Shown: piece after piece, positions 3,454 to 51,319 of the stretch
How the letters are laid out: each line of letters begins with the position of its first letter
Numbering within the stretch: position 1 is the stretch's first letter
Assembly (NCBI GenBank): GCA_963711565.1
Contig: CAVQEQ010000003.1
Span: forward strand, 160,001-224,000
Reading direction: 5' to 3'
DNA: 64,000 nt
DNA from: an uncultured delta proteobacterium
GTDB lineage: Bacteria > Desulfobacterota > Binatia > Binatales > Binataceae
Notes under the pieces: model-generated
Database searches by the model: none
What the model saw: only the letters and a program-made list of their open reading frames with translations
What the model was told of the DNA's origin: nothing
Program-made: the position numbers and the translations under genes

Positions 3454-3464
3454 CGGGTCGCGCA

Positions 3465-4772: not shown

Positions 4773-4777
4773 TAGCG

Positions 4778-5368
4778 ATGTCGCAAATTCAGGATGGAAT
4801 TGCGGCGTTGCAAGCCGGCGAGCTGGTCGTCTATCCGACTGAGACGTTCTATGCGATCGGCGCCGACGCGTTTTCATCCGTCGCCCTGCAGCGCCTGTTC
4901 CGAGTGAAAGGGCGCGAGCCCGGACGACCCGTTGGATTAATCGCGGCGGACACCGCGATGGCATTTTCGGTAGCGCGCGAAATACCGAGCGTCGCGCGGC
5001 GGCTCGCGGACGCATTTTGGCCGGGACCCTTGACCATCGTTATGCCGGCGCGCGACGAAATTGCACCCGAGCTGACGGGAGCCGACGGCGTCGGCGTGCG
5101 CGTATCGCCCAATCCGGTCGCACGCGCACTCAGCGCCGGACTCGGGCGGCCGATCACGGCGACCAGCGCAAACCTGAGCCGAGAACCGCCGGCCAGCGAG
5201 CTTGAAGACGCGCGCGCCGGGTTGGGTGAAAAAGTTAATGTTTACCTTGAAGGTGGAAAATTGACGGCGCCGGCGCCAAGCACGGTGGTGGTAGTCAGCG
5301 AGAGCGGGTGGAACATGGTGCGCGTGGGAGCGATTTCAGAAAATCAGATCGCGGCGGCGTTGAAGTGA
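4778..5368 (+). CDS. tsaC: L-threonylcarbamoyladenylate synthase (YrdC/Sua5 family)
   Basis: YPTETFYAIG, KGR, FWPGPLT, TATSANLS, PSTVV. ATG at 4778 just after the purD stop. Confidence 0.92.
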   Translation: MSQIQDGIAALQAGELVVYPTETFYAIGADAFSSVALQRLFRVKGREPGRPVGLIAADTAMAFSVAREIPSVARRLADAFWPGPLTIVMPARDEIAPELTGADGVGVRVSPNPVARALSAGLGRPITATSANLSREPPASELEDARAGLGEKVNVYLEGGKLTAPAPSTVVVVSESGWNMVRVGAISENQIAAALK

Positions 5369-6660
5369 GCGGGCTCAGCAAGCGAATCGAGCCGTTTCGC
5401 GCCCTGATGTACAACCGCCAAATCACGGGCGACCCGGCGCGGGTCGTCGCGCCGCCGTACGATTTGATCGGCGTCGCGCGTCAGAATCAACTCTACGAGC
5501 GCAGTCCGTACAACATCGTGCGGCTCGAACTCGGACGCGAGGCCGATCGCTACGGCGCGGCGGAGAAAACGCTCGCGGAGTGGATGGCGGCGCGAGTCGT
5601 CGAGCGATCGGCGCGTCCCGCAATTTTTCAATACACACAGACTTTTGACGTTGAGGGCCGGCTGCTGCATCGCGCCGGATTCATCGCGCGCGTTCGGCTC
5701 GAGGAATTCGATCGCGGGCGCATCCTGCCGCACGAGAAAACTTTCCCCGCCGCGAAGGAGGATCGCTTACGCCTGCTGACCGCGCTGCAGATCAACACGA
5801 GCTCGATCTTCGGGCTGTACTCCGGAACGCATCCCGAGCTTGATCGATTGCGCGAGCAGGTCGCCGCGCGCGAGCCGCTGATCGATCTCGTTAACGACCT
5901 GGGAATCCGCAACGAGCTCCGGCCGCTTGAAGCGGCCGACGAAATCGCGATCGTTCAGCGCGAACTTGAAGCGCCGCGCATTTTGATCGCCGACGGACAC
6001 CATCGCTACGAAACCGCGCTGGACTATCGCCGCGCGCGGCGGCATGAGAATGAGTCGAGTGAGCCCGCGCCGTACGACTATACGATGATGACCCTGGTCG
6101 CATGCGACGATCCGGGGTTGGTGATCCTGCCGACGCACCGGGTCGTGAAATCGCTGCCCGCCAATGCGATCGTGTCGTTCGTGCAGCGCGCACGCGAAGT
6201 TTTCAACATCGAGGAAATTGGGCATCGCGACGAATTTCGCGCGCGCCTGAGCGACTCCGGCAGCGGCGCCATCGGCGTGGCATTGAAAGGTAGTCCAACC
6301 TACTTGATTTTGCTGTTGCTCGACGGCACTGCGATGAAGGCCGCGATGCCCGACGCGCCGGAGGAGGTGCGGCGCCTCAACGTCTCGATTCTGCACGCGC
6401 TCGTGTTCGATCGAATTTTCGGCTTGAAGGCGGACGAGATTCGCAAAGGCGGAAATATCGAATACACGATTGAAATCGGCGGCGCGCTCGGCGCGGTCGG
6501 AGATGGACACGCTGACGGCGCGTTCCTGATGAATCCGCCGTCCATTCGGGACGTCGAGCGGGTTAGCGACGCGGGTGCGACGATGCCCGAGAAATCGACC
6601 TACTTCCATCCCAAGCTGCTCACCGGCCTGGTGATGAATCCGCTCTTCGACGGCAAATGA
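5365..6660 (+). CDS. DUF1015 family protein (ParB/Srx-like core)
   Basis: APPYDLI, ILPHEKT, IADGHHRYETA, ILPTHR, MPEKSTYFHPK. GTG start overlaps the tsaC stop (GTGA). Confidence 0.88.
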   Translation: MSGLSKRIEPFRALMYNRQITGDPARVVAPPYDLIGVARQNQLYERSPYNIVRLELGREADRYGAAEKTLAEWMAARVVERSARPAIFQYTQTFDVEGRLLHRAGFIARVRLEEFDRGRILPHEKTFPAAKEDRLRLLTALQINTSSIFGLYSGTHPELDRLREQVAAREPLIDLVNDLGIRNELRPLEAADEIAIVQRELEAPRILIADGHHRYETALDYRRARRHENESSEPAPYDYTMMTLVACDDPGLVILPTHRVVKSLPANAIVSFVQRAREVFNIEEIGHRDEFRARLSDSGSGAIGVALKGSPTYLILLLLDGTAMKAAMPDAPEEVRRLNVSILHALVFDRIFGLKADEIRKGGNIEYTIEIGGALGAVGDGHADGAFLMNPPSIRDVERVSDAGATMPEKSTYFHPKLLTGLVMNPLFDGK

Positions 6661-7280: not shown

Positions 7281-8063
7281 TCACACACGTCGAAGCACTC
7301 CCATCCAGCGGTAGCGGCACCTGTCGAGCGGCCTGGTGAATGACAAGTCGCAGTACGCGGCGGCCATTTTGAACATCCCGGACGCGAGTGCGGCGAGTTC
7401 CAGCGTGGCGGGAATCGTGTAGCGCACCGGGATCAAATCGCGAGTCGTCACCACGCCGGCGGGAAAGTTGATCGTGCATTCGAGTTCGTAGATCGAATGC
7501 AGCGGCGAGTGCCATGCGATGGGACGATGGAACTCGCGGATGCCGAGCGCAACCCCGGCGGCCTGCGCCGAGCGCTCGCGCCACATCGTGCGCCGCGGCA
7601 CGCGCGGAATCGGATCCTGCCGATCGATATCGATGCAGTACAAGCCGCCGCGTTTGAGCGCGCGGCCCACCGACTTGAGATGCGACAGCAGGCCGCGATT
7701 CTCGACGATCACCGGGAAAGTTTCGGACATAAAGATTGCGGCGTCGAAGGAGCGCTCGGGAAGGGTGAACTTTTCGATTGCCCGGGGGTAGAAGCGAAGA
7801 TTCGCGAGCACGTTCGCTTTGCGGCGCCCAGCTGCGATCATCGTGGGCGAGCGATCGATTCCAACGACCTCTAATCCATCACCCGCCAGCAGACGGCCGT
7901 GAGGCGAGTCGCCGCATGCGATGTCGAGGACGCGACGCGTCGGACTCTTGCGATGCCGCTTCCAGACCTGTTGCAGAAAAACCACTTCAGCCGGAATCTC
8001 GCCGGGACTCTCCAAGTGCGCGCGCCGGAAGATGTCGGGATATTCGTAGATGCTCGGTTCCAT
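7281..8063 (-). CDS. Class I SAM-dependent methyltransferase
   Basis: VLDIACG, GIDRSPTM, LKRGGLYCID. Start placed at MEPSIYEYP. Confidence 0.85.
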   Translation of the reverse strand: MEPSIYEYPDIFRRAHLESPGEIPAEVVFLQQVWKRHRKSPTRRVLDIACGDSPHGRLLAGDGLEVVGIDRSPTMIAAGRRKANVLANLRFYPRAIEKFTLPERSFDAAIFMSETFPVIVENRGLLSHLKSVGRALKRGGLYCIDIDRQDPIPRVPRRTMWRERSAQAAGVALGIREFHRPIAWHSPLHSIYELECTINFPAGVVTTRDLIPVRYTIPATLELAALASGMFKMAAAYCDLSFTRPLDRCRYRWMGVLRRV

Positions 8064-8179
8064 CGGCGACGAGCGTACCGGCGGCGCGCTTCGAGATCGA
8101 CGCTTGAGATTTCGCGGCGAACGGCGGGATAATGCCCGCGCATCCGAGTTCCTGAACGACCGTTTAGGGGTTAGTCGCA

Positions 8180-9391
8180 ATGAGCAAGCCGCTCGAAGGA
8201 ATCAGGGTCGTCGAGATCGCGCAGGAAATCCAGGGACCGTTCGCGTCGCTGATCCTGGCCGACATGGGCGCGGACGTCGTCAAGGTTGAGAACAAGGAAA
8301 CCGGCGATCTGAGCCGGTGGATGCTGGCTGCGCTGATTGGCGGCCCGGACGTGAAGAACGCGACGGTGTCGCATTACTTTATCGCGATGAATCGCGGCAA
8401 ACGGAGCATCACCGCCGATCTGAAAAAGCCCGACGCGATCGAGATGGTGCGCCGGATGGTGAAATCGTACGACGTGCTCGTCACCAACTATCGCCCCGGC
8501 GTGCTCGACCGGCTCGGGCTCGGCTACGACGACGTGCGCAAGATAAATCCGCGCATCGTGTATGCGCAGGGTAGTTCGTGGGGACCCCGCGGACCGTGGG
8601 TGACGCGACCGAGCCGCGACACGCTCGCGCAGGCGGCGAGCGGCGTGATGGCGAAGACGGGGATGCCTGACGACCCGCCGCTGGCGGCGGGAATGTTCAT
8701 TGCGGATCATTCGGGCGCGCTGAGTCTCGCGAGCGGAGTGCTGGCGGCGCTGTTCGCGCGCGAGCGCACCGGCAAGGGGCAGAAGGTTGACGCCTCGATT
8801 TACGGCACGATGATCGCGATGCAGGGAATGGAGATCAATTACACATCGATCACCGGCGTCGAGCCCGAGCGCGCGGGCCGCGGGCATCAGTTTTTGCGCG
8901 GCGTGTGGGGCGCGTTCCCCACTCGCGATGGTTACGTCTGTATCGCGGGCGTGGACGAGAAGCGCTGGCCGTCGTTCTGCAAGATCGTCGGGATTCAGCA
9001 CCTGGAGAAAGATCCCGAGTATTCGGACAACGTCATTCGTAATTTTCACGGCGACAAGATTCAGAAAGTGCTCGACGAGATCTTTCCCACGAAGACGAGC
9101 AAGGAGTGGCTCAAGGAACTCACCGACGCCGACATCCTCGCGACCGAGGTCGTCGATTACCGCGCGATGCTGAAGAGCGAGCAGGCGCGCGTGAATGGAT
9201 ACCTGCTCGAACTCGACCATCCGGTGGCGGGCAAGGTGCTGGTGTCGGGCACGCCGATAACGATCAACGGCGAAGTCACGACGATGGCGGAGGCTGCGCC
9301 CGAGCACGGGCAGCATACCGAGGAAGTGCTGCTCGAACTTGGCTACTCGTGGGAAGAGATCGGCGCGCTGCGCGACAGCGGCGCCGTGTAA
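8180..9391 (+). CDS. Family III CoA transferase (CaiB/BaiF)
   Basis: PLEGIRVVE, LADMGADVVKVE, NRGKRSI, NYRPG, APEHGQHTEEVL. Confidence 0.93.
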   Translation: MSKPLEGIRVVEIAQEIQGPFASLILADMGADVVKVENKETGDLSRWMLAALIGGPDVKNATVSHYFIAMNRGKRSITADLKKPDAIEMVRRMVKSYDVLVTNYRPGVLDRLGLGYDDVRKINPRIVYAQGSSWGPRGPWVTRPSRDTLAQAASGVMAKTGMPDDPPLAAGMFIADHSGALSLASGVLAALFARERTGKGQKVDASIYGTMIAMQGMEINYTSITGVEPERAGRGHQFLRGVWGAFPTRDGYVCIAGVDEKRWPSFCKIVGIQHLEKDPEYSDNVIRNFHGDKIQKVLDEIFPTKTSKEWLKELTDADILATEVVDYRAMLKSEQARVNGYLLELDHPVAGKVLVSGTPITINGEVTTMAEAAPEHGQHTEEVLLELGYSWEEIGALRDSGAV

Positions 9392-39373: not shown

Positions 39374-40429
39374 CTAGTTGTAGTTGTTGATTACCGTGAC
39401 GCCGATATTCTGAAAAGTGTTCATCTCGTTGAAAATCTTGTTGATCCCGTCCAGCCCACAGGTCCCGGTCACCATCGCCTTGGGCGTGACCTTCTTCGCC
39501 TCGACCATTTGCAGCATCGCCGGATAGTGCGATGCCTGCATCCCGAGCGATCCGATCATCTGCAACTCCATCAGGACGATCCGATCGATCGGCATCGGAA
39601 TCTCGCCCTGCTCCGCCGAAGTCGTGAGCCCGATCTGCAGATGACGGCCCTGCTTGCGCAGGCTCATGATCGAATTGCGGCAAGTGGCCGCAACGCCGAG
39701 CGCATCCACGGCCACGTGCGCGCCGCCGCCGGTGAGATCGAAAATCGCGCTCAGGGGATCGGTCTTCTTCGCGTTGATCACGTGCGCCGCGCCCATGCCC
39801 TTGGCGAGTTCGAGCTTGGCCGAGTCGAGATCGACGCCGATGACGTTGGCTCCCATGGCGGCCGCGATATTGATCGCCGACAGTCCGATTCCGCCGCAGC
39901 CATGAACCACCACCCACTCACCGGGCTTCACCTGCGCGCGATCGACGACGCCGTGAAACGAAGTCATAAAGCGGCAGCCCATCGAAGCCGCCTCGACAAA
40001 GTCGATGCTCGCGGGGAGAGTGACGAGGTTCATGTCGGCGAACGGCACTGCGACCAGGTGGCCGAATCCGCCGTGATACGAAAATCCCGGCAGCAGTGGA
40101 GTCAGGCATACGTTGGATTGCCCGTTGCGACAGTATTCGCAAGTGCCGTCGCCCTGGCTGAACGGCACCACGACGCGCGCGCCCTTCTTGAAGTTGCGCA
40201 CGTCCTTGCCGACTTCCTCGACGATGCCGGTGAACTCATGCCCCATGACCGCGCCGGGCTGCGCCGAAAGCCCCATCCACGACCAGTCGCCCGTCCACGC
40301 GTGCCAATCGGAACGGCAGATGCCGTTGGCCTCGACGCGGATGATCGCGCTGGTCGGTTCGCATTCCGGATCGGGAAGAGTTTTTACGACGAGCGGCTTT
40401 TTGGTCGCCTCGAATACAGCTGCTTTCAT
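39374..40429 (-). CDS. Zinc-dependent alcohol dehydrogenase family protein
   Basis: GICRSDWH, GHEFTG, DGTCEYC..C structural zinc site, GCGGIG. Confidence 0.92.
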   Translation of the reverse strand: MKAAVFEATKKPLVVKTLPDPECEPTSAIIRVEANGICRSDWHAWTGDWSWMGLSAQPGAVMGHEFTGIVEEVGKDVRNFKKGARVVVPFSQGDGTCEYCRNGQSNVCLTPLLPGFSYHGGFGHLVAVPFADMNLVTLPASIDFVEAASMGCRFMTSFHGVVDRAQVKPGEWVVVHGCGGIGLSAINIAAAMGANVIGVDLDSAKLELAKGMGAAHVINAKKTDPLSAIFDLTGGGAHVAVDALGVAATCRNSIMSLRKQGRHLQIGLTTSAEQGEIPMPIDRIVLMELQMIGSLGMQASHYPAMLQMVEAKKVTPKAMVTGTCGLDGINKIFNEMNTFQNIGVTVINNYN

Positions 40430-40505
40430 TGTTGAATCTCCTTAACGAAGTCGTGATTGATTTCGATATAGCGCCTTTGGCGGCAAACCGGCAAATTCCA
40501 ACACT

Positions 40506-40559
40506 GGGTGCAGGGGTCACCCCTGCCCAAGGAAGCGCGAAACCCACGGAGGGTTTCGC
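40506..40559. repeat. Tandem GC-rich hairpins (REP-like element or structured UTR)
   Basis: GCAGGGG-tca-CCCCTGC (40510-40526) and GCGAAACCC-acgga-GGGTTTCGC (40537-40559). Confidence 0.5.
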
Positions 40560-40589
40560 ATTCAATTAAGTGATTTCCCCTTCCCCATC

Positions 40590-41585
40590 CTATAACAGCC
40601 TCGCCACGGTTTTCTCGAACTCGGCCGGCGTGCTCGCATCAACATCTATCGGATGCAGATCGACGCCCGCCTCGTCCTGCGCCTTCAGACGCTCGACCGC
40701 GCCTTCGATGCCGCCGATATAACCCAACTCCGCGAGCAGCTTCGGCGACAGCGCCGCGGTCCCGGCCTTCGAGCCGCCCGCGTCCCACGCCTGCTTGACC
40801 TTCTGCACATCGTCGCCGAAACCGAAGCGCGTGAGTTGCTCGGAATAAAAGGTCCCCATGCGCGCGGCGTAGAACGCGACGTTGGCCGCATGTCCCGCGA
40901 CGGCGCGATCGACGTTCGCAGTAACAGTCACGTGTCCGGGCGCCTTGACCGCGACATCGCGCGGATTCCGTCCGGCGCTCGTCGCGATCTCGCGAAAATC
41001 CGCGATCGCTTTCTTGAGCGAGTTGATCGGGATCATCACCGGCAGCCATCCGTCGGTTTTCCTGGCGGTGAACTCGACGCTCTTTTTGTTGAGCGACGCA
41101 ATCCAGATCGGGATGTGCTTGCGCGGAGTCTCGAAGCGCATCGTGAAGCCGCGTTGCAGCTTGAACAGCTTGCCTTCGTAGTTGAGCGGCGTCTGCGCGA
41201 AAATCATGTTGATAATTTCCACGTACTCTTTCATCCGCGTCAGCGGCGGATTAAACGGGACGCCGTGGAAATGCTCGATCACCTGCGGCCCGCTGGTGCC
41301 GAGCCCGATTATCATGCGGCCGTTGCTCAATTCGTCGAGCGTGCCGAAATGCTGCGCGAGAGCTGCCGGCGTACGTGAATATATATTCACGATCGAAGTC
41401 GCGAGCTGAATCTTGCTGGTATGCTCGGCGAGCAGCGTCAGCAGCGTGAACGCGTCGCGGCCCCACGCTTCGGCCACCCAGATCGAATGGATGCCCGCGG
41501 CTTCCGCGATTTTCGCGTGCTCGATCGTCTTCTTGAAATCAGGCTTGCCCTGCCAGTTCACTCCGACTGATAATTTGCGTGCCAT
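40590..41585 (-). CDS. LLM class flavin/F420-dependent oxidoreductase
   Basis: WVAEAWGRD, YSRTPA, LDELSNGR..GLGTSGPQVIE. Confidence 0.9.
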   Translation of the reverse strand: MARKLSVGVNWQGKPDFKKTIEHAKIAEAAGIHSIWVAEAWGRDAFTLLTLLAEHTSKIQLATSIVNIYSRTPAALAQHFGTLDELSNGRMIIGLGTSGPQVIEHFHGVPFNPPLTRMKEYVEIINMIFAQTPLNYEGKLFKLQRGFTMRFETPRKHIPIWIASLNKKSVEFTARKTDGWLPVMIPINSLKKAIADFREIATSAGRNPRDVAVKAPGHVTVTANVDRAVAGHAANVAFYAARMGTFYSEQLTRFGFGDDVQKVKQAWDAGGSKAGTAALSPKLLAELGYIGGIEGAVERLKAQDEAGVDLHPIDVDASTPAEFEKTVARLL

Positions 41586-41595
41586 CAAAATCCTC

Positions 41596-42234
41596 CTACG
41601 CGAGATCGCGAATCCTTTCGTACCATCGACTGACGTTTTTGAAATCTTTCACCGTCGCAAAGCTCGCTGGGTTGAGCGTTAGAAAAAACAGCGGGTGGTA
41701 CACTGACGCGTCCGCCATCGTGAAGCTCTTGCCCAGAATGAAATCCTTGCCCGCGAGCTGATCGTCGATCATCCGCAAATGACTCGCGAGCTGCTCCTTC
41801 ATCGGCACGTGACTCTCACGCATCTGCGCCGTCGTCATCCCGATCAGCTTCTCGCGATTCGCCTTCAGCTTCGCGTCGCCCGCCGCGTCGAGTAAATCGG
41901 GAATCGTCAAAAACAAAATCGGCATGAAAAACGTGTTATCGGCCCAATTGTCGACCAGCTCGATCAGCAGGCGCGACTCGTCGGGAATCACGCGGTTCGC
42001 CGGCAATTTGCGATCGAGCCACTTGATTATGTCCGCGGAGTTGTAAACCACCTCGCCGTCCCATTCGAGCACCGGCACCCGCGTCCACGCGCCTTTGGTC
42101 ACGGCGAGCAGGTTGGTCTTGTCCTCGTAATGGCAGTCGATCGGATGCCACTTGAGATGCTTGTAGATGAGCACGCGCCGCACCTTCTCGGAGAACGGCG
42201 AGATTGGATACTGATAGAGATTTATTTCTCCCAC
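41596..42234 (-). CDS. Glutathione S-transferase family protein
   Basis: SPFSEKVR, VPVL, NSADI, FTMAD. Confidence 0.88.
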   Translation of the reverse strand: MGEINLYQYPISPFSEKVRRVLIYKHLKWHPIDCHYEDKTNLLAVTKGAWTRVPVLEWDGEVVYNSADIIKWLDRKLPANRVIPDESRLLIELVDNWADNTFFMPILFLTIPDLLDAAGDAKLKANREKLIGMTTAQMRESHVPMKEQLASHLRMIDDQLAGKDFILGKSFTMADASVYHPLFFLTLNPASFATVKDFKNVSRWYERIRDLA

Positions 42235-42238
42235 TTTT

Positions 42239-42664
42239 TCAGAACCTCATCACCTTGAGCGAAAATTCAATATCTTCGCGAATCAAATTCCGAATATGGC
42301 ATCCGCGCTCGGCAACTTCGACCAGTCGATGAAGCTGTTCGTCGTTGGCGCTGGATTCAACTTGAAGTTCTACTTTAATTTCCTTCACATGCCCTTTTTC
42401 GTTGGCGCGAGCATGCACCGACGCTCGGCCGAGATGGACTTTGCGCACGCGCGCAGCGACTCGGAGCGACATCAGCAGACATCCACCAAGCGCGCCAAGG
42501 AACGACGACACCGGATCGGGCGCAGCCGCATCTTCGCCCGACAGCCGCCACCGCAGCGCATCGTACTTCACCTCGGCGCTGAGCGAATCGCCCGCCGAAT
42601 CGACGATGACGTCGCGATGATGCGTCGGTTCCTGCGATGGATCTGCGGCTGGCACATTGGGCAC
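42239..42664 (-). CDS. OsmC/Ohr family protein
   Basis: P..FLGALGGC and AERGCHI two-cysteine pattern. GTG start follows GGAGG. Confidence 0.82.
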   Translation of the reverse strand: MPNVPAADPSQEPTHHRDVIVDSAGDSLSAEVKYDALRWRLSGEDAAAPDPVSSFLGALGGCLLMSLRVAARVRKVHLGRASVHARANEKGHVKEIKVELQVESSANDEQLHRLVEVAERGCHIRNLIREDIEFSLKVMRF

Positions 42665-42801
42665 GTCGTCCTCCAACGCCCAACCCTAGCCGAGACGACG
42701 ACTTTTCTACAAACCGTTCCTTCAGGGAATTGGACGCGATCACCCTGCTACTCGATTTTTTCGCGCCGAAGTATCATCGTAGATTGCAACCGAGGCGCGC
42801 T

Positions 42802-43644
42802 ATGAAAAAGCATCTCACCGTCATTCTCGTCGCGACAACGCTGATCGTCACCACGGTCCTCTCGCGTGCCGTCGCCGACGACCTGGAGGCGAACGACAAG
42901 GACGCGGTCTGCACCACCGGTGCGGCTGGCCAGATGGGCCTGCACCTGAGATTGAGCGACCACATGACGATGACCGAGTCGCGGCCGATGACGCCGGCGG
43001 ACACTGAGCGCGGCGAAAAGATCATCGCGACGATGCGCGCGAAGCTCGCCAAGTACGAGGACTACAAGGTCGCGATCGCCGACGGCTACCAGCCTTACAT
43101 GGAATCGGTGCCGCAGGACGTCTATCACTTCGCCAATCGCGAGCTGACGGCCTCCGAGTACATGGGCGACTTCGATCTCGCGCACCCCGGCTCGCTCCTC
43201 TACGAGAAGAAAATGTTTGGTGGATACAAGCTGGTCGGCGCGATGTACGACGCGCCCGAGGGCGATACTCCTGAGCAACTCGACGCGCTGATCCCGCTGA
43301 GCCTTTCCCATTGGCACGCGCACACCAATATCTGCCTCCCCAACGGCGTGACCGAGGCCGACGTAATGAACGGCAACATCGCGGCCAGGATGCGGCCGGA
43401 TATTTCCTCGGCGGGCGATGCCCCCGAGCAGTTTGGTCGCGGCGGTGGCGCGGGTGAGTCCGTACGGATGCGCGTCGGCTACCTGGCCGATCCGCGTTTC
43501 GGCTTCACCGGCACGATTTCAAATCAGGCTGACTGCGAGGCGGCGGACGGAAATTTTCACAAGCAGATTTTCGGCTGGATGATCCACGTCTACCCGTTCG
43601 CAAGCGACGATATGAAGGTAGCGTTCAGCCTCGAAGCACCGTGA
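42802..43644 (+). CDS. Secreted hypothetical protein with His/Met/Cys motifs
   Basis: Signal peptide; YHF, PGSLLYE, LVGAMY, WHAHTNIC, GWMIHVYPF. Confidence 0.72.
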   Translation: MKKHLTVILVATTLIVTTVLSRAVADDLEANDKDAVCTTGAAGQMGLHLRLSDHMTMTESRPMTPADTERGEKIIATMRAKLAKYEDYKVAIADGYQPYMESVPQDVYHFANRELTASEYMGDFDLAHPGSLLYEKKMFGGYKLVGAMYDAPEGDTPEQLDALIPLSLSHWHAHTNICLPNGVTEADVMNGNIAARMRPDISSAGDAPEQFGRGGGAGESVRMRVGYLADPRFGFTGTISNQADCEAADGNFHKQIFGWMIHVYPFASDDMKVAFSLEAP

Positions 43645-43660
43645 CACGGACGCCCACTGC

Positions 43661-44299
43661 TTAGTCCGCCGCAGTGATGCGGTACGCGCAGCGCCGCGCG
43701 CCGGCCAGGATGTGATCGATTCGTTCGACCCGCGCCTTGTCGCCGAGCACGGAGCGGAACAGCGACAGTTCTTCGCGGCATAGGCCCTGGCAAGTGGCTG
43801 CCGCGGCGCAGATCGGGCAATGATTCTCCGCCAACAGCATCGAGCCGTCCGGCATCCGCGAGCATTCGGCCATGTAGCCCTGCTCGCGTCGAATCTCGGC
43901 CAACGCGTGCGCGCGCTTTGCGATCGAAGTCCCCGTCGGGCGAAGCCGCCTGCGATATTCCTCGATCTGGCGGCGCGTCCTCTCGCGCAGCAACTTGTCC
44001 ATCCCGGCTTCGCCGAACGCCGCGCGCACGGCGCCGATGATCTCGACCGTCAGGTCGCCATGAGTGTCGGGAAAGCGCTCGGCCGCTGCGCTAGTCAATC
44101 TCCACACTCGCGCGGGCCGTCCCACCTTGCGCCGCTCGTCGGTGTATTCGACCAGGCCCTCGACCCTCAGGCGATAAAGATGTTGCCGCACCGCCATCGC
44201 CGTGACGCCGAGGCGCCGCGCGACCTGGGCCGCCGCTTGCGGTCCTCGCGTCTTGAGCTGGAACAGGACGCCCTCCTCCGCGCGCGCATCGTGCTTCAT
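43661..44299 (-). CDS. SufR-like HTH transcriptional regulator with C-terminal Cys motif
   Basis: wHTH (AVRQHL..L..EGLV, VGRP), GYMAE, ENHCPIC-x5-C-x3-C..E, RRCAY. Confidence 0.85.
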   Translation of the reverse strand: MKHDARAEEGVLFQLKTRGPQAAAQVARRLGVTAMAVRQHLYRLRVEGLVEYTDERRKVGRPARVWRLTSAAAERFPDTHGDLTVEIIGAVRAAFGEAGMDKLLRERTRRQIEEYRRRLRPTGTSIAKRAHALAEIRREQGYMAECSRMPDGSMLLAENHCPICAAAATCQGLCREELSLFRSVLGDKARVERIDHILAGARRCAYRITAAD

Positions 44300-44307
44300 G
44301 AATTGAG

Positions 44308-44374
44308 ATGGTACCGAACGTGACACGTTAGTCAAGCGGCCGCTTGACTTAGTATATAAAGCGAGTACTTTACA
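44308..44374. promoter_or_regulatory. Back-to-back divergent sigma70 promoters plus candidate operator
   Basis: Perfect 20-bp palindrome AGTCAAGCGGCCGCTTGACT (44330-44349) supplies TTGACT on both strands. -10-like TACTTT (44366-44371, +) and TACCAT (44313-44308, -), each at 16-bp spacing. Inverted repeat TAAAG-N6-CTTTA (44357-44372) overlaps the + strand -10. Confidence 0.6.
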
Positions 44375-44403
44375 AATTATCGACCAGCGAGGAGGACGCA
44401 TCG

Positions 44404-46176
44404 ATGAATACGCAATCGATCGAACCCGCCAACCGCACTTTCGTTCGCGCCGCATCGCTCACCGACCTGCCCCCGGGCGGCCACCTGACCGTCAACCTCG
44501 ACGGCCACGTGATCGCGCTGTTCCATACGCCCGAGGGAACCTTCGCGGTGGACAATCGATGCCCCCACATGGGCTTCCCTCTAGATCGCGGCACGGTGAA
44601 GGATTGCATCCTCACCTGCCACTGGCATCACGCGCGCTTCGACCTGCACAGCGGCGGCGCCTTCGATCCGTGGGCCGACAACGTCCGCGCGTTCCCGGTC
44701 AAGCTCGAAGGCGGCGACATCTGGATCGATCTGGCACCGCGCGGCGACTCTCGCCGGCATCGCGTCGAGCGCCTGCGCGACGGCATCGAGTGCAACCTCT
44801 CGCTCGTCATCGGCAAGTCGGTGATCGCGATGCTCGACGACACCGGCGACGCGCGCGAGCCGTTTCGCATCGGACTCGAATTCGGCACGCACTATCGGCG
44901 CGACGGCTGGGGCGCGGGCCTGACCACCCTCACCTGCTTGATGAACCTGGTCCCGATTCTGCGCGACGAGGATCGCGCGCGTGCGATGTTCCACGGGCTG
45001 TGCTCGGTGGCCAACGACTCCGACGGCCATCCGCCGCGGTTCGAGATGCGCCCGCTGCCCGGCAACGGCGCGAGTCTCGCGGAGATCAAGCGATGGCTGC
45101 GCAAGTTCGTCGAGGTCCGCGACACCGAGGGCGCCGAGCGATGCATCGTCTCAGCCGTGCGCACAGGAGCCGCGCCGCGTGAGGTCGCCGACATGATGTT
45201 CGCCGCGGCGACCGACCATCGCTATCTCGACGGCGGTCACACACTCGATTTCAGCAACAAGGCGTTCGAGGCGCTCGATCACGCGGGATGGGATCTTGCC
45301 GAACCGGTGCTCGCCAGCCTCGCGCGCGGCTACGCGACCGGCGATCGAATGGAAGAATCCAACTCGTGGCGGAATCCGGTCAACCTCGTCGCGATTCTCG
45401 AAGCCGCGTTCGAGCACATTTCCGATGCGCTGGCACTGGGCCGGCGTGCCAGCCGCTCATCGGATCAATTCGGCCGCGATGCGCTTGTGCCCGTAATCCT
45501 CGGCGACGATCCTCAAGCTATCGTCAACGCGATGCTCGCTGCGCTGCGCGAAGGATGCGCGCCCGCGGACCTCGCAGGCGCTGTTGCGTATGCTGCCGCG
45601 CTGCGGATTGCGCGCTTCCCTGTCAGCAACGAGTTTGGCGATTGGGATACCGCCCATCACAGCTTCACATTTGCCAACGCCGTTCATCAGTCGGCGCGCC
45701 GGGTCAGCTCGCCGGAATTGGTGCGCGGAATTTTCGACGCCGCAACGACGGTCTATCTCGACCGATTTCTAAATGTGCCCGCCGCAAAACTCCCGGAGCT
45801 GAATGGCGCGCGGAACGGAAAGAGCGCATCGAATCGACTCGCCGAGTTGCCCGCCTTGCTCGATCGTCAACAGCAGGTGAATCAGGCGGGCGCGCTGGTT
45901 GCCGAATATCTTGCCGCTGACGCAGCCACCGACGCATTGCTCGCAACGCTCGGCAGTACCTTGCTCCGTGAGGACCGCGACTTTCATACGATCCAGGATG
46001 TCGAGGCCGCTGTCCGCCAGTACTCGATCCTGAAAGGAACTCCCGCGGCTGCGCACGTGCTCATCGCGACGACGCGCTACCTCGCTGCTCACGCTCCCAC
46101 TGTTCGCGCGCAGGCGCAGACCTATCAGATAGCGTTGCGGTTGAATCGCGGCGAGCACGTCTTCGACGAAAATTGA
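44404..46176 (+). CDS. Rieske [2Fe-2S] domain fused to a ~480-aa uncharacterised helical, His-containing domain
   Basis: CPH-x16-CHWH Rieske motif in the first ~110 aa; GGAGG RBS. Confidence 0.85.
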   Translation: MNTQSIEPANRTFVRAASLTDLPPGGHLTVNLDGHVIALFHTPEGTFAVDNRCPHMGFPLDRGTVKDCILTCHWHHARFDLHSGGAFDPWADNVRAFPVKLEGGDIWIDLAPRGDSRRHRVERLRDGIECNLSLVIGKSVIAMLDDTGDAREPFRIGLEFGTHYRRDGWGAGLTTLTCLMNLVPILRDEDRARAMFHGLCSVANDSDGHPPRFEMRPLPGNGASLAEIKRWLRKFVEVRDTEGAERCIVSAVRTGAAPREVADMMFAAATDHRYLDGGHTLDFSNKAFEALDHAGWDLAEPVLASLARGYATGDRMEESNSWRNPVNLVAILEAAFEHISDALALGRRASRSSDQFGRDALVPVILGDDPQAIVNAMLAALREGCAPADLAGAVAYAAALRIARFPVSNEFGDWDTAHHSFTFANAVHQSARRVSSPELVRGIFDAATTVYLDRFLNVPAAKLPELNGARNGKSASNRLAELPALLDRQQQVNQAGALVAEYLAADAATDALLATLGSTLLREDRDFHTIQDVEAAVRQYSILKGTPAAAHVLIATTRYLAAHAPTVRAQAQTYQIALRLNRGEHVFDEN

Positions 46177-46189
46177 CGGCAGGTGAAAA

Positions 46190-47245
46190 ATGAATCCCGC
46201 TGATTACTCCGCCCTCGATGAGACGCTCGAAATCATGGCGCCGATGGGTCCCGACCTGAGCAACGGCTTCTCCAATCACGCGCCGATGGCGATTGAAGCG
46301 ATGTGTGCGATGGGCCGTCGCGACGCCGTGATGCCGTGGTTCGAGCGCTACCGACACTCGCTGGCGCCGCGTCGTGCCCGGGTCGCGCGGCTTACTGACG
46401 ACGGCTGGCGCGCCGCGCTGGGAGATCAACGCCGCACCGAAGATTGGTTCGAGTTCTTTCGCAACGAACTCGAGGGCCGCCCGTGGCCTGCTGTGCTCGA
46501 CACCTGGGCCGAACGGCTCGCGCCCGGTCTGATGGCGGCCGCGACGCACGGCGTGATTCGTACCGGGCACGCAACGCGAGCGATCGCACTCGATGACAAT
46601 CCCGCGCGCCGGCGCGAACTGGCCGACGGTCTCGCATACTGGGCGGCCGATTATATGCCGCTTCCCGCCGAGCGGCATCGGCCTGCTCGCGCGACGCCGT
46701 CGGCTGCGATCGCTCGCGTGCAAATCATTCCGCCGGGAACTCGCCGCGGCAACTTCGGTGCGTTCACCGACGCGCTCGCGCAGCTCGATTCCTTTCCGCC
46801 ATTCAAGGATACGCTCGACGCCGTCGATCCTTCCGGCGACCCGCACGCGTTCCTCTCCGATCTGACTGCTACCTTTGCGCGCGTCTTTCTCGCCAATGCC
46901 CACGACACTTACACGACTATCGCGTTCGTCCACGCCGTCACCGGCCCGTCAGCTCTGCGCCCGATGCTTCCGTACCTGCGCGATACAACCACGCAGGCCG
47001 CGCTCGCATACGCATGGCAAACGGCCGCAGCGATGTATGGAACTTTCGGCACGCGGACTGACCTCTCACGGCTCGGCGAGATTAAGGTCGAGAACCCGGA
47101 TGAACTCATCGCTCGTGCGATCGCGTGTGGTGACGAGCACGCGATCAAATTCACCGAGGTTTGTTTACGCGAGTTCGCGCTGATTCCGGACCCGGCTTTT
47201 CCCGCGGCCGCCGATCATGCGATTCGAATGCTGAGCGCTACTTGA
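46190..47245 (+). CDS. Questin oxidase/DUF4243-like protein
   Basis: SNHAPM, ATHGVIRTGHA, HAVTG, DEHAIKF motifs. Confidence 0.75.
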   Translation: MNPADYSALDETLEIMAPMGPDLSNGFSNHAPMAIEAMCAMGRRDAVMPWFERYRHSLAPRRARVARLTDDGWRAALGDQRRTEDWFEFFRNELEGRPWPAVLDTWAERLAPGLMAAATHGVIRTGHATRAIALDDNPARRRELADGLAYWAADYMPLPAERHRPARATPSAAIARVQIIPPGTRRGNFGAFTDALAQLDSFPPFKDTLDAVDPSGDPHAFLSDLTATFARVFLANAHDTYTTIAFVHAVTGPSALRPMLPYLRDTTTQAALAYAWQTAAAMYGTFGTRTDLSRLGEIKVENPDELIARAIACGDEHAIKFTEVCLREFALIPDPAFPAAADHAIRMLSAT

Positions 47246-47918
47246 GGCCGCAGTAAACGGCAAAGATCAGGTTCTTGTACGCGCAATCGATATCGCGGAA
47301 CCCGGCTTCGCGCAGCCATTCGAGCTGATCCTCTAGCGTCGCCGCGCGATCGAACTTCATCCGCTCGAGCGCCGCCGCGAGGTCGCGATCGTCCACGCCT
47401 AATTCGCGCACCCGCGTGACCCATCGCTCGTGATGGAACTTATGCCGCTCCGGCGTCGCGCAGCGAAACTGCTCGGCGTTGACGAACACGCCGCCGTCGT
47501 TGAGCGCGCCGTAGATTCGATCGAACAGCGAGCGCTTCTGCTCGTCGCCAAGGTGATGGATCGACAGGGCTGAAACGACCGCGTCGTACTTTTCCTGGAT
47601 TCGATCGACGCCGTAGTCGGAGACCTCGAAGCGGAAACGCTCGCCCGCCAGTTCGAAGCGCGCACGCGCGCGCTCGAGCATCTCGTTCGAGATATCGACC
47701 ATCGTGATCCGCGCGTTTGGGAAGTTGTACGCGATAAACGCCGCCATCAGCCCCGTGCCGGCGCCGAGATCGAGAACCTTGAGCGGGCTCTCGCGCGGGA
47801 ACTGGATCAGATCGATTGCCGCGCGATAGAAGTCGTCGAACCCAGGCACCAGCCGACGCCGCGTGCGGTCGTAGTCCTCCGCCGCCAGATCGAACGCGTG
47901 CTGTACTGAATTCGCCAT
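47238..47918 (-). CDS. Class I SAM-dependent methyltransferase
   Basis: VLDLGAGTG, VSALSIHHL, GGVFVNAEQ, QLEWLREAGF. Confidence 0.9.
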   Translation of the reverse strand: MANSVQHAFDLAAEDYDRTRRRLVPGFDDFYRAAIDLIQFPRESPLKVLDLGAGTGLMAAFIAYNFPNARITMVDISNEMLERARARFELAGERFRFEVSDYGVDRIQEKYDAVVSALSIHHLGDEQKRSLFDRIYGALNDGGVFVNAEQFRCATPERHKFHHERWVTRVRELGVDDRDLAAALERMKFDRAATLEDQLEWLREAGFRDIDCAYKNLIFAVYCGLK

Positions 47919-47990
47919 CTGAAGATTGTGCGGACGCGACGGTCGTGAATCAACCGCACGCTTGAGACGGCTATCTGGACTGCCGCCCCG

Positions 47991-48245
47991 CTACTTGCCG
48001 AGTTTCGTCATTCCTTTCTTGCGCCGCTCGGCCCATCGCTTCTTCATCAGCTCCGACAGCCGCTTGCGACCTTCTTTGCTGATACCGCCGCGCCGCTTTC
48101 TGGTCTTGGCGGCTGCCTTAGGACCAGGTTTCCGGCCTCGCTTCTTTCCGGTAGACGCGGATCCTACGCCTACCAGGGCCGCGATCGCTTTCACAAGCCG
48201 ATCTTTTTCCTTCGTCAGGTCTGCAACGATTTTGTCGATCTCCAA
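47991..48245 (-). CDS. Small basic protein, putative nucleoid-associated
   Basis: TTG start after GGAGG; N-terminal coiled coil, KKRGRKPG, RKRLSELMKKRWAERRKK. Confidence 0.72.
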   Translation of the reverse strand: MEIDKIVADLTKEKDRLVKAIAALVGVGSASTGKKRGRKPGPKAAAKTRKRRGGISKEGRKRLSELMKKRWAERRKKGMTKLGK

Positions 48246-48389
48246 GTAAGTGCTCCTCCAGGTCCCCAATAAGGATGCTTATCCAGTTGTTACTGCAGCA
48301 TATCCAACAATTATAATTGCTGGAAGGGACAAGAATTGCAATTCTTGCCGGCTAGGACTCGAACCCTTTCCTTAGCCTTAGGACTCGGA

Positions 48390-50081
48390 TTATGCGCCGG
48401 CGTGGCCGTGACGTAGTAGCTTGCCGGGCAGTGAGCCGTCAGACGCGACCTGATCCTTGTTCTCGCGCCGGATGACTGTGCCGTTAACTATCACCGCGTC
48501 GATTCCTTCCGCGTCGGCTACAAGACGATCCTGATTCGCAGGAAGATCGTACACGCGGCGCAGTTTGCTCGCGCCTACTTTGTCGGGATCGAAAATCGTG
48601 ACGTCAGCCGCCAGGCCGGGCACAAGCCGCCCACGATCGGTGATGCCGAATACTTCGGCCGGTCGCGCACTAAGCATCCAGATTGCGCGCTCCATCGGAA
48701 TCGCGCGCTTCTCTCGCACCCAGCGGCCGAGCATGTAGGTCGAGAAGCATGCGTCGCATAGCTGGCTCGCGTGAGCGCCCGCGTCCGAGAGTCCCAGCAC
48801 GGTGTGGCGCCCGGCGAGCAGTTCGGCGACTTCATCTTCGACGTTGTTGAGGATCGACATGCGAAAGCGCGCTTCCAGATTCGACGCCAGCGCCAGGTCG
48901 AGCGCGAGATCGATCGGATCGACGCCGCGCTCGCGCGCCACTTCGTTCAGGTTGCGTTCATCGAGCGATGGATCGCTCGGCGAGAAGGAGATCACCGTGC
49001 GATCCCATCGGTTGGCGAACGCGCCGCGCGAGCCTTCGCCCGCCTTGGACTTGAAGGCGCGGCGGAATTCCGGGTCGGCGTAGATTTTCTTCTTGCCTTC
49101 GAAGTCCGCCGCTGAGACCGGCGCGAACACGCTCATGCTCTCGAAGATAAACGGAGCCTTGAACTGAAATTCGAAATTCAGCGGACGACAGGTAACCTGT
49201 GGGATTATGCTCAGCCCCTCGTCGCACAGTTTCTGTGACGCTTCGAGCGGCCCGCGATGTCCTCCGGGACCGTTCATGCCCGCGAGCAAGGCCGTGTAGG
49301 TAATCGGGCGATGAGTCTCGCGCGCGATTTCCGCAAACTCGCGCAGGAACAACTCGCGTCCTATCGTTGCCTGCATGATTCCATGGCCCGCCTCGCCCAT
49401 CGCCGATGCGAGCGTCCTTATCTCGTCGAAGTCCGACATGCGGCTGGGCACCGGCTTGCCGCTGTAGCCGACGTGGGTCGGCGACTTCGAGGTTGCGAAG
49501 CCAATCGCGCCGGCGTCCATCGCGCGGCGCACAAGAGTCTTCATCTGCGCGACTTCGTCCGTGGTCGCGGAGCGTTCGGTCGCCTCCTCGCCCATCACGT
49601 ACAGTCTTATCGGCGTATGTCCCACCAGCGCGCCGAGGTTGATCGCGGTGCCGCGGCGCTCGATCGTATCCATGTACTGCTCGAAGCTCTCGAACGGCCA
49701 TTCGTAGCCGAGCCCCGTCTCGAGCGCCTTGAGACTCATCCCTTCGACATTTTCGAGCGTCCGCATGATCAGCCCGCGATGCTCGGGGCGCGTCGGCGCC
49801 ACGCCGAAGCCGCAGTTCCCCATGACAACAGTGGTCACGCCGTGCCATGGCGAGATCGTCATCATGCGATCCCACATCACCTGCGCGTCGTAGTGCGTAT
49901 GAATATCGACGAAGCCCGGCGCCACGACTTTGCCCTTGGCCTCGAGGGTCTCAGCCGCTTTGCCCCTGGCCTCGCCAACCGCCGCGAGCTTGCCATCCTT
50001 GATAGCGACGTCGCCGACACGTCCGGGCGCGCCAGTACCGTCGTAAATCGTGCCGCCTGTGATCTTGAGATCGTAGTCCAT
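48390..50081 (-). CDS. N-acyl-D-amino-acid deacylase family amidohydrolase
   Basis: PGFVDIHTHYD, GNCGFG, SDAGAH, ADVTIFDP. Confidence 0.9.
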   Translation of the reverse strand: MDYDLKITGGTIYDGTGAPGRVGDVAIKDGKLAAVGEARGKAAETLEAKGKVVAPGFVDIHTHYDAQVMWDRMMTISPWHGVTTVVMGNCGFGVAPTRPEHRGLIMRTLENVEGMSLKALETGLGYEWPFESFEQYMDTIERRGTAINLGALVGHTPIRLYVMGEEATERSATTDEVAQMKTLVRRAMDAGAIGFATSKSPTHVGYSGKPVPSRMSDFDEIRTLASAMGEAGHGIMQATIGRELFLREFAEIARETHRPITYTALLAGMNGPGGHRGPLEASQKLCDEGLSIIPQVTCRPLNFEFQFKAPFIFESMSVFAPVSAADFEGKKKIYADPEFRRAFKSKAGEGSRGAFANRWDRTVISFSPSDPSLDERNLNEVARERGVDPIDLALDLALASNLEARFRMSILNNVEDEVAELLAGRHTVLGLSDAGAHASQLCDACFSTYMLGRWVREKRAIPMERAIWMLSARPAEVFGITDRGRLVPGLAADVTIFDPDKVGASKLRRVYDLPANQDRLVADAEGIDAVIVNGTVIRRENKDQVASDGSLPGKLLRHGHAGA

Positions 50082-50221
50082 CGTCGTGTGCCTCGATTCG
50101 CTATCTATATCGCGCGCGCTTCCATGCGGTCCAGACCGATCGGTATGGAATCGCGGCGTTGTAAAGCTCACAATGCTCTAGTAATAGAAATTCCAGCGCA
50201 ACGGCCAATCGAGGGCATACG

Positions 50222-51319
50222 ATGCAGAAGCCAATTATCTCCGCAGATTCTCATATCACCGAGCCGCCCAACACTTACATCGATCGAATCGATCGCAAGT
50301 ATAAGGATACTGCCCCGCACATGATTCACGACGCGAAGCTCGGCGATGTCTTCATCGTCAAGGACTTCCCGCGTCCGATCAACGTCGCGCTCGCTGCCGC
50401 CGCGGGCAAGGATGCGAGCGAGCTGCGGACTATTGGCGCGAAGTTCGATGAGATGCACAAGGGCGGATGGGATCCCAACGCGCGCATGGCCGACCAGGAT
50501 CGCGACGGCGTCGCCGCCGAAGTCATCTACCCTACAGTCGGCATGGTGCTCTGCAACCATCGCGACTTCGACTACAAGAAAGCATGCTTCGACGCTTACA
50601 ACCTCTGGATAGGCGAGTACTGCGCGGCGCATCCCGATCGGTTGATAGGATGCGGGCAGACTGCGATGCGGTCGGTCGAGGAAGGAATCTCGGACCTGCG
50701 CAAGATGAAGGAACTCGGGCTCAAGGGTGTCATGATGCCCGGTAACCCCGCGCTCGAGGACTACGACAGTCCTATCTATGCGCCTTTCTATGAGGCCGCG
50801 ATCGACCTGCAGATGCCACTGAGCTTTCACATCCTGACCAGCAGCAGCGATAACTTCCAGACCCGCGGGCCCAAGCTGAACAGCTTCCTGTCGATCATCC
50901 GCGGATGCCAGGACATTATCGGCACTTTCGTTCTCGGCGGAGTTTTCGAGCGTCATCCAAAGTTGAAAGTAGTATGCGTCGAGGCTGACGCCGGATGGGT
51001 GCCGCACTATATGTATCGGATGGATCATGCATACGACCGGCATCGCTACTGGCTACCGGCCGGCACGCTTACCAAAATGCCTAGTGAGTATTTCCGCGAG
51101 AACGTTTACACTACCTTCCAGGACGACTATGTAGCATTCCAAGTCCGCAATCTTTGCAACATCAAACGCCTGATGTGGGCGAGCGACTTCCCCCATAGCG
51201 ACTCGACCTGGCCGTGGTCGCAGGACGTCATCAGCAAGCACACCGTCGGAATGACCGCGGACGAGAAGAACCTGGTGCTGCACGACAACGTCGCGGAACT
51301 GTACCATCTGAGCATCTAG
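50222..51319 (+). CDS. Amidohydrolase_2 family protein
   Basis: SADSHITEP, PLSFH, VEADAGW, WASDFPHSDSTWP. Confidence 0.9.
   Translation: MQKPIISADSHITEPPNTYIDRIDRKYKDTAPHMIHDAKLGDVFIVKDFPRPINVALAAAAGKDASELRTIGAKFDEMHKGGWDPNARMADQDRDGVAAEVIYPTVGMVLCNHRDFDYKKACFDAYNLWIGEYCAAHPDRLIGCGQTAMRSVEEGISDLRKMKELGLKGVMMPGNPALEDYDSPIYAPFYEAAIDLQMPLSFHILTSSSDNFQTRGPKLNSFLSIIRGCQDIIGTFVLGGVFERHPKLKVVCVEADAGWVPHYMYRMDHAYDRHRYWLPAGTLTKMPSEYFRENVYTTFQDDYVAFQVRNLCNIKRLMWASDFPHSDSTWPWSQDVISKHTVGMTADEKNLVLHDNVAELYHLSI

Follow-up and report, generated by a model that had tools for sequence, protein, structure and literature searches.

In a stretch of 64,000 nucleotides from an uncultured delta proteobacterium of the family Binataceae (assembly GCA_963711565.1, contig CAVQEQ010000003.1, positions 160,001 to 224,000; hereafter the window, whose numbering is used for all positions), the gene for a regulator that resembles the iron-sulphur sensor SufR is divergent from two genes, of which the first fuses a Rieske domain to a large helical domain and the second encodes a protein of the DUF4243, or questin oxidase, family. 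This arrangement raises the question of what the regulator controls, and of whether the two oxidase-like proteins are parts of one enzyme or work separately. The answer developed here, to which we give somewhat better than even chances, is that a regulator of the SufR family represses a divergent operon for a self-contained oxidase, built from a Rieske domain and a helical domain with the predicted fold of the dioxygenase BTG13, and for an independent DUF4243 dioxygenase, so that the two proteins are co-regulated without being obligate partners.

The regulator gene occupies positions 43661-44299 on the minus strand and encodes 212 amino acids (aa); the fusion gene (44404-46176, 590 aa) and the DUF4243 gene (46190-47245, 351 aa) follow each other on the plus strand, and the 104 nucleotides (nt) between the divergent genes, 44300-44403, form a putative promoter and operator region with two palindromes. 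All three open reading frames (ORFs) are thus found where a preliminary description of the window had placed a divergent regulator and a two-gene unit with a 13-nt gap. This gap (cggcaggtgaaaa) contains an AGGTGA ribosome-binding-like site. The spaced histidine motifs listed in the same description are also present in the translations, GHTLD (H279), HHSFT (H418/H419) and DFHTIQ (H528) in the fusion, and NHAPM (H30), HGVIR (H120), HAVTG (H248) and DEHAIK (H317, K320) in the 351-aa protein. The ORF of the regulator is open over 43661-44455, and its likeliest start is the ATG at 44297-44299 (MKHDARAEEG...), since all seven aligned orthologues begin nearby and the longer ORF would run into the beginning of the Rieske gene. 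In the 4.84-Mb, 94.9%-complete assembly all three genes are single-copy. The names under which almost identical public proteins are filed indicate Candidatus Binatus.

The regulator matches the NCBIfam model TIGR02702 (SufR_cyano) from end to end, over model positions 4-208 of 208, with a score of 122.1 bits that falls short of the equivalog cut-off of 178.8, and it is the only gene in the genome that resembles this model. The family COG2345, to which SufR and the regulator ArnR belong, is characterised in a recent preprint by a recognition helix that bears the motif R-x-H, a GRP AT-hook in central position and a [4Fe-4S] cluster held by three cysteines and one glutamate, which in SufR of M. 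tuberculosis are C179, C192, E195 and C220 (bioRxiv 10.64898/2025.12.26.696629). The window regulator has the winged helix-turn-helix of this family, the motif R38-Q-H40, the AT-hook G60-R-P62 and a predicted ligand set of three cysteines with a fourth ligand of the Glu/His type, C161-X12-C174-X2-E177-X26-C204. None of these motif residues varies in seven orthologues with identities down to 41%, nor do the two extra cysteines C164 and C170. The regulator is therefore predicted to carry a [4Fe-4S] cluster, the binding of which we infer from its sequence.

One may ask whether the regulator is nevertheless an ordinary SufR, which serves genes of Fe-S assembly elsewhere in the genome and whose position here is incidental. 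TIGR02702 is its best NCBIfam match and the whole model is covered, but the equivalog cut-off is not reached, and a search for sufB (TIGR01980) gave no match in the assembly, while the same search was positive in 14 of 14 control genomes. That no suf genes lie in the window had been noted before, and for sufB this now extends to the whole assembly. As the genome lacks a recognisable sufB, the regulator is taken to be a SufR-like sensor with another task, in agreement with the preliminary description, which had not tied it to suf.

The region between the divergent genes gives a first indication of what this task may be. A perfect 20-nt palindrome (AGTCAAGCGG/CCGCTTGACT) spans 44330-44349, and its core TCAAG-N6-CTTGA takes up 44332-44347; nine bases further on, within an A/T-rich stretch of a genome with 62% G+C, follows a second palindrome, TAAAG-N6-CTTTA, at 44357-44372. 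TTGACT hexamers resembling -35 boxes fall within the first palindrome on both strands, and the second would overlap the spacer and the -10 region of the promoter that points rightward. In the published SufR site CAAC-N6-GTTG (bioRxiv 10.64898/2025.12.26.696629), too, six bases separate the half-sites and the setting is A/T-rich, and the spacing may be counted in favour of an ordinary SufR. However, the tandem site occurs only once in the genome, and so does TAAAG-N6-CTTTA in the 4.84 Mb, which counts against an ordinary SufR. The core TCAAG-N6-CTTGA is found at five other places, as single sites, and no wider regulon is claimed because this number is comparable to that of control palindromes (1-4).

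Eight loci of the genus have the operator block in almost unchanged form, whether the Rieske gene is present or not, and it can be recognised in three distant loci, namely a Binataceae locus, the locus L050 and a cyanobacterial locus with two sites of the TAAAG type. When the upstream sequences of regulator relatives are inspected over at most 220 bp in the 75 metagenome loci where enough of them is available, AAG-N6-CTT occurs in 66 and the stricter form TNAAG-N6-CTTNA in 41, while in the controls, stretches of the same length taken from inside the regulator gene, neither occurs in any of the 75. The regulator thus likely represses the divergent operon by way of the two AAG-N6-CTT palindromes, which we regard as putative operators.

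The neighbours of the regulator point in the same direction. They were assessed in a regulator-centred set of 80 metagenome loci from soil and other samples, with regulators of 53-92% identity, from which 10 loci with less than 250 bp of upstream sequence were set aside. Among the remaining 70, a Rieske fusion with its helical domain in view is divergent and adjacent in 36, and in eight more the N-terminal Rieske part stands in the same divergent position at a contig end, so that relatives of the regulator divergently adjoin a Rieske fusion in 44 of 70 loci. The fusion is downstream on the same strand in two loci, a PF14027 (DUF4243) gene without fusion is divergent in seven, and the other 17 have unrelated neighbours (in a sample classified with Pfam: methylmalonyl-CoA mutase, BNR repeats, glyoxalase, MFS and sigma-70). 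These counts identify regulator and Rieske fusion as a conserved module, and since the two stand side by side on many environmental contigs they are likely to make up a stress-switched oxidase unit of an undescribed kind. With a Rieske fusion or a DUF4243 gene as neighbour in 53 of the 70 loci, an incidental position of an ordinary SufR becomes highly improbable.

Seen from the fusion, the picture is wider. The best 80 of at least 596 loci that match the fusion outside the genus are annotated as Chloroflexota, Cyanobacteria, Actinomycetota, Armatimonadota, Acidobacteriota, Methylomirabilales and Binataceae, and the protein retains 55-65% identity between phyla. No recurrent neighbour across phyla was found in these loci beyond synteny at the level of clades: no family occurs in more than nine of the 80, and those that come up are clade-specific. 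In one of the Binataceae loci, L003, the fusion is followed by a 196-aa ORF (7832-8419, plus strand) that is not PF14027 and is weakly similar to the glycine/sarcosine/betaine reductase B family (E 4.2e-6).

What the fusion is can be told with confidence for its N-terminal part. The protein consists of a Rieske [2Fe-2S] ferredoxin-type domain at aa 13-110 and an all-helical domain at aa ~115-590. Residues 15-88 match the Pfam family Rieske, PF00355 (E 2.7e-13), the cluster ligands C53, H55, C72 and H75 are present in all 38 sequences that have the domain, and no Pfam family was found for aa 115-590. For the helical domain we turn to an AlphaFold2 (AF2) model of the whole protein, with a predicted local distance difference test score (pLDDT) of 85.7 and a predicted template modelling score (pTM) of 0.88, which was compared with 48,161 PDB representatives by VIA-align in a fold search independent of Foldseek. 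Residues 10-111 of the model match the ferredoxin of naphthalene dioxygenase, 2qpz (Z 18.6, root-mean-square deviation (rmsd) 1.4), and residues 144-569 match BTG13, 7y3w_A (Z 17.3, rmsd 4.2 Å, 328 of 440 residues aligned, 11% identity); the hydroquinone dioxygenase PaD, 8z4q_A, is also matched (Z 14.1, 330 of 463 residues aligned), while the next helical matches extend over about 95 residues only (C-terminal domains of MgsA, Z 12-13). As helical models often reach a Z of about 14 with this tool through arrangement alone, the assignment is probable and not certain: the helical domain of this confidently predicted model probably shares the BTG13/DUF4243 fold. Foldseek with the whole fusion model against the PDB listed Rieske ferredoxins alone and did not find BTG13.

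Within the helical domain, aa 113-209 and aa 222-316 of the model each resemble the helical domain at the C-terminus of AAA+ ATPases of the MgsA type (Z 11-13, ~95 residues), which hints at an internal duplication in the BTG13-like fold, from two MgsA-like segments. By its model, the domain is not that of a Rieske oxygenase alpha subunit, with its catalytic domain and 2-His-1-carboxylate site: oxygenase chains match the model only at aa ~3-114, and the remainder resembles BTG13 and PaD. The unlikeness to the catalytic domain of classical Rieske oxygenases that had been suspected from the letters is thereby borne out.

The family defined by this domain is large. A search with aa 115-590 against 1.84 billion representative proteins gave 1,756 clusters, defined at 50% identity, at E <= 0.001 and 319 at E <= 1e-30. 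The CxH...CxxH motif occurs in 57 of the 82 listed representatives of at least 430 aa, and the four that were compared with Pfam among the 25 without it (P0253, P0257, P0261 and P0319, ~450-480 aa) also lack a Rieske domain. In the ESM Atlas, only unnamed clusters or clusters named 'Rieske' were found, with scores below 0.9.

To see what may have become of the metal site, consider first the enzymes of the matched fold. BTG13, GedK, PaD and AflY are DUF4243 enzymes that hold iron on four His residues together with one Lys in carboxylated form and cleave hydroquinone rings, and in PaD the ligands are H63, H166, H317, H394 and K397, as reported in PMC11371914 and PMC12173810. At many of the more distant regulator loci there is a sister subfamily of Rieske fusions (13 sequences, ~535 aa) with the invariant motifs TTHA, FGH, DFTH and SxHxxK, that is, four histidines and a lysine in the order of DUF4243. 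The helical part of this subfamily aligns with that of the window fusion over 392 columns (hhalign probability 99.0%, E 2.7e-18), and the alignment maps the five ligand positions to T175, H279, H419, H528 and Q531 of the window fusion, which has in place of the 4-His-1-Lys pattern the series Thr/His/His/His/Gln. Among the 150 best representatives, an aliphatic residue or Thr followed by His/His/His/Gln dominates, with 49 of the 57 sequences in the 12 commonest combinations, a tally restricted to sequences that cover all five ligand columns. It is thus likely, from the alignments, that the family of the window fusion has a three-histidine site in which glutamine replaces the carboxy-lysine. The conserved core of the fusion comprises H279, D282, N285, K286, E289, E317, E318, W322, R401, N409, D413, W414, H419, E523, D524, H528, Q531 and R558, and those of its residues that are invariant around the presumed site are D282, N285, K286, E289, E317, E318, W322, D413, W414, E523 and D524.

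Two ligands of the catalytic BTG13 site are thus replaced in the fusion, and this also fits a protein that is no enzyme at all and in which the Rieske and helical domains report the redox state, or a small molecule, to signalling partners. Such partners exist: cluster P0243 joins the module to a class III nucleotide cyclase domain, in cluster P0255 it is preceded by regions of an ECF-type sigma factor, in L007 a gene with Fer2 and cyclase domains (7793-8704) begins 47 bp downstream of the fusion and in L059 a gene with cyclase, AAA_16 and TPR domains (2928-5372) 21 bp downstream, and in many loci a transcription factor is paired with the fusion. These are, however, four cases among some 230 sequences and loci from phyla in which cyclase genes are common, fusions seen in a single cluster can be artefacts of gene calling, and a signalling partner is absent from most loci examined. 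Moreover, about 20 polar residues are near-invariant across phyla at an identity of 55-65% between them, which fits a catalytic or ligand-binding pocket. We therefore consider a sensor unlikely and retain an oxidase as the preferred reading.

The product of the downstream gene is easier to place. The 351-aa protein passes the Pfam model Questin_oxidase, PF14027, with 47.5 bits against a cut-off of 27 (positions 1-132 of 340 of the model matched), and PF14027 is carried by 120 of 120 of its homologues among the matches listed. The residues H30, H120, H248, H317 and K320, four histidines and a lysine, are shared without exception by 10 homologues with identities down to 37%. A profile of the homologues finds AflY, 8yxs (E 9.3e-4), and PaD, 8z4q (E 0.91), in the PDB, and the alignment with PaD puts H120, H248, H317 and K320 on the stretches that hold H166, H317, H394 and K397 of PaD. 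An AF2 model from a shallow alignment reached a pLDDT of 48.3. Judged by its sequence, the protein is an ordinary, complete member of the DUF4243 family, and it is predicted to be a non-heme-iron ring-cleaving dioxygenase.

We now come to the question of whether the two oxidase-like proteins need each other. The preliminary description had proposed that they form one metalloenzyme, in which the Rieske centre of the fusion feeds the iron of the DUF4243 protein. Their genes are 13 nt apart on one strand, they are adjacent in all 13 fusion-carrying genomes of the genus and in L050, the two proteins have a fold class in common, and the fusion, having lost two of the five BTG13-type ligands, could be a non-catalytic partner for electron delivery. 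The distribution of the genes is at odds with this proposal. Outside the genus, a PF14027 gene stands beside the fusion in one of the best 80 of at least 596 loci, and PF14027 occurs anywhere in the genome in one of 36 fusion-carrying genomes, a count that may miss some co-occurrence, since divergent members are poorly recognised by the Pfam model. Of 36 other genomes sampled from the genus, 13 have the fusion, each time directly upstream of the PF14027 gene, and 31 have the PF14027 gene, 18 of them without fusion. Among 24 genomes from other genera of the class the fusion occurs in none and a PF14027 relative in five; a sample across the phylum had the fusion in none of 150 other genomes, which says little as only four are of the same class, and in another phylum PF14027 was present in one of 121 genomes. 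In two incomplete assemblies of the genus (G175:C31:76488-78983 and G182:C1:231276-232291) matches to the fusion and/or to the PF14027 gene are fragmentary and interrupted by internal stop codons, which may reflect either gene decay or assembly error.

The loci of the genus without fusion are informative here. In all five that were compared (L083-L087) the regulator is directly divergent from the PF14027 gene and the synteny is otherwise identical. With BLASTN, homology to the window breaks off either just ahead of the fusion gene or inside its first 5-18 nt and resumes at, or just before, the start of the PF14027 gene, at points that differ from locus to locus. L087 retains 22 nt of the 3' end of the fusion gene (95% identity, E 9e-6), and in some fusion-less genomes the PF14027 ORF begins with the first codons of the fusion (MNTQ...). 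From these remnants at differing junctions it follows that the locus originally had the fusion gene and that each of the five lost it with a junction of its own, after which the PF14027 gene stayed behind the same promoter and putative operator.

Repeated loss of the fusion with retention of the PF14027 gene contradicts an obligate enzyme of two subunits, and the characterised DUF4243 enzymes are described as stand-alone proteins that receive their electrons from the hydroquinone substrate (PMC11371914). A single metalloenzyme fed by the Rieske centre is for these reasons quite improbable, and neither of the two oxidase-like proteins is likely to need the other. Co-occurrence, which the preliminary description had put forward as a check, accordingly holds for regulator and fusion in the divergent, adjacent arrangement of the metagenome loci, but fails for fusion and PF14027 outside the genus.

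The co-regulation of two independent enzymes may then be envisaged as follows. In the holo form, the regulator would repress both divergent promoters. Repression would be lifted once the cluster is lost to oxygen, to reactive species of oxygen or nitrogen, or to a shortage of iron, as with SufR and ArnR. The fusion would be an oxidase or oxygenase that is complete in itself: electrons from a generic reductase would travel by way of the Rieske centre to a remodelled mononuclear metal site formed by His279, His419 and His528, with Gln531 in the place of the BTG13 carboxy-lysine and Thr175 in that of the first histidine. The DUF4243 protein would independently cleave a ring of the hydroquinone type, like BTG13, GedK and PaD, and the two would be co-regulated neighbours and not obligate partners.

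Several observations weigh against this scheme. The fold match comes from a single predicted model, and sequence profiles do not reproduce it: hhalign of either fusion subfamily against DUF4243, with shallow and deeper alignments, gave probabilities of 0.1-1.8% (0.3% for the sister subfamily with its 4-His-Lys pattern), PF14027 had no hit up to E 10 in 31 members of the fusion family, which thus lie outside the profile, no DUF4243 chain came up in PDB profile searches with the fusion subfamilies, the search with the sister subfamily giving Rieske proteins only, and BLASTP of the fusion against the 351-aa protein gave no match. The suggestion that the two proteins are distant paralogues is thus plausible by fold, with the matches to 7y3w and 8z4q, but is not supported by sequence profiles, and the relation of the fusion to DUF4243 depends on the fold match and on the order of the motifs. 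That H279, H419, H528 and Q531 meet at one metal site is likewise something that we infer; H419 is conserved in only 35 of 42 sequences, and the invariant acidic residues D282, E289, E317, E318, D413, E523 and D524 could form a different site. Among the 80 loci centred on the fusion the regulator is rare (three), and in several Chloroflexota the fusion gene stands alone between dnaX and a GTPase gene. No reductase gene was found near the unit, and the first palindrome may be just two back-to-back -35 boxes.

As to expression, short contigs (151-221 nt) from the RNA libraries of two soil metatranscriptome runs match the regulator gene (43707-44005) and the fusion gene (45341-45491 and 45710-45930) at 99-100% identity. 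Since RNA libraries can contain DNA, these contigs are weak evidence of expression; the DUF4243 gene had no contig in the two runs, where uncovered parts prove nothing.

The unit lies within a block that is syntenic across the genus. On one side (39374-42676, minus strand) are genes for a zinc alcohol dehydrogenase, a luciferase-like monooxygenase, a glutathione S-transferase and OsmC, and on the other (47238-51319) genes for a methyltransferase, a 92-aa basic protein and two amidohydrolases; the methyltransferase gene converges on the DUF4243 gene, with 3' ends that overlap by 8 nt. The OsmC, glutathione S-transferase, luciferase-like monooxygenase, zinc alcohol dehydrogenase and methyltransferase genes fit a setting of detoxification and prove nothing. 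Convergent with the regulator gene is a gene (42802-43644, plus strand) whose 280-aa product carries a signal-like segment at the N-terminus (MKKHLTVILVATTL...) and an HWHAH motif; no Pfam or NCBIfam family was found for it, and its Atlas clusters are all unnamed and commonest in Acidobacteriota. The gene is syntenic, and convergent with the regulator gene, across the genus as well as in L003, L050 and many metagenome loci.

What is new here, if the predictions hold, is a Rieske domain on a BTG13-fold scaffold with altered ligands, together with a SufR-like regulator that has a new half-site and new targets. A full-text literature search gave no paper that names Rieske together with DUF4243, BTG13 or GedK. 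The text of the preprint on COG2345 (bioRxiv 10.64898/2025.12.26.696629) mentions neither Rieske proteins nor dioxygenases, and its Supplementary DataSet 1 could list the subfamily. More tentatively, it is possible, though we would not wager on it, that the Rieske/BTG13-fold fusions constitute a large and undescribed class of Rieske-coupled metalloenzymes (with 1,756 clusters, and with members annotated as Chloroflexota, Cyanobacteria, Actinomycetota, Armatimonadota, Acidobacteriota, Methylomirabilota and Binatia), which evolved from 4-His-carboxy-Lys dioxygenases and one branch of which came under a SufR-like [4Fe-4S] sensor dedicated to it.

The degradation of aromatic compounds and natural-product chemistry are fields in which Rieske oxygenases and BTG13-type dioxygenases alike are studied. 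A class that joins them would be a second, all-helical solution to the problem solved by the Rieske oxygenases and, if the fusion is catalytic, a new route of electron delivery to an unusual iron site. The two natural variants, with four histidines and a lysine or with three histidines and a glutamine, offer a comparison that could reveal the role of the carboxy-lysine, and the losses of the fusion in a single genus, each with its own junction, are a natural experiment that shows the downstream dioxygenase to be independent of it. For the subfamily of SufR-like Fe-S regulators, the locus supplies a putative promoter, an operator motif and candidate target genes, which would be the first target set of a COG2345 regulator besides those of SufR and ArnR.

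How, finally, does the locus compare with known systems? The regulator is like SufR and ArnR in its SufR similarity over the full length, its AT-hook and R-x-H motif, its Cys/Cys/Glu/Cys spacing, the N6-spaced palindrome in an A/T-rich setting and the divergence of its gene from the presumed target. ArnR is given in the preprint as the only member of COG2345 other than SufR with known targets (bioRxiv 10.64898/2025.12.26.696629). The window regulator differs from SufR in the half-site, AAG/CTT instead of CAAC/GTTG, and in the two extra invariant cysteines, and from both SufR and ArnR in that its neighbours are a Rieske fusion and a DUF4243 gene and not suf, nar or hmp.

With BTG13, GedK, PaD and AflY, the 351-aa protein has in common the Pfam membership and the same 4-His-1-Lys positions, while the helical domain of the fusion shares with them the predicted fold, and its sister fusions have His, His, His and HxxK in the same order. 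The characterised enzymes, in contrast, are fungal, belong to natural-product clusters and have no Rieske domain, and the window fusion deviates from them by Thr and Gln at two ligand positions and by the lack of detectable similarity to the PF14027 profile. MinC and IndB, from the minimycin and indigoidine pathway of Streptomyces, also join a bacterial DUF4243 domain, at the C-terminus, to a second domain in a single chain, as reported in PMC6908994; there the partner is a HAD phosphatase within a nucleoside-antibiotic cluster, whereas in the window the partner is a Rieske domain and the gene is not surrounded by a biosynthetic cluster.

A further comparison is with the Rieske oxygenases. Like the alpha subunits of naphthalene and carbazole dioxygenases, the fusion carries an N-terminal Rieske CxH...CxxH motif and a domain with conserved histidines on one chain. 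Its Rieske part is closest to the free ferredoxin components 2qpz and 5bok, and its second domain is predicted to be all-helical and BTG13-like, unlike that of the oxygenases. If the Rieske centre feeds a mononuclear iron in this second domain, then the fusion would work as a Rieske oxygenase does.

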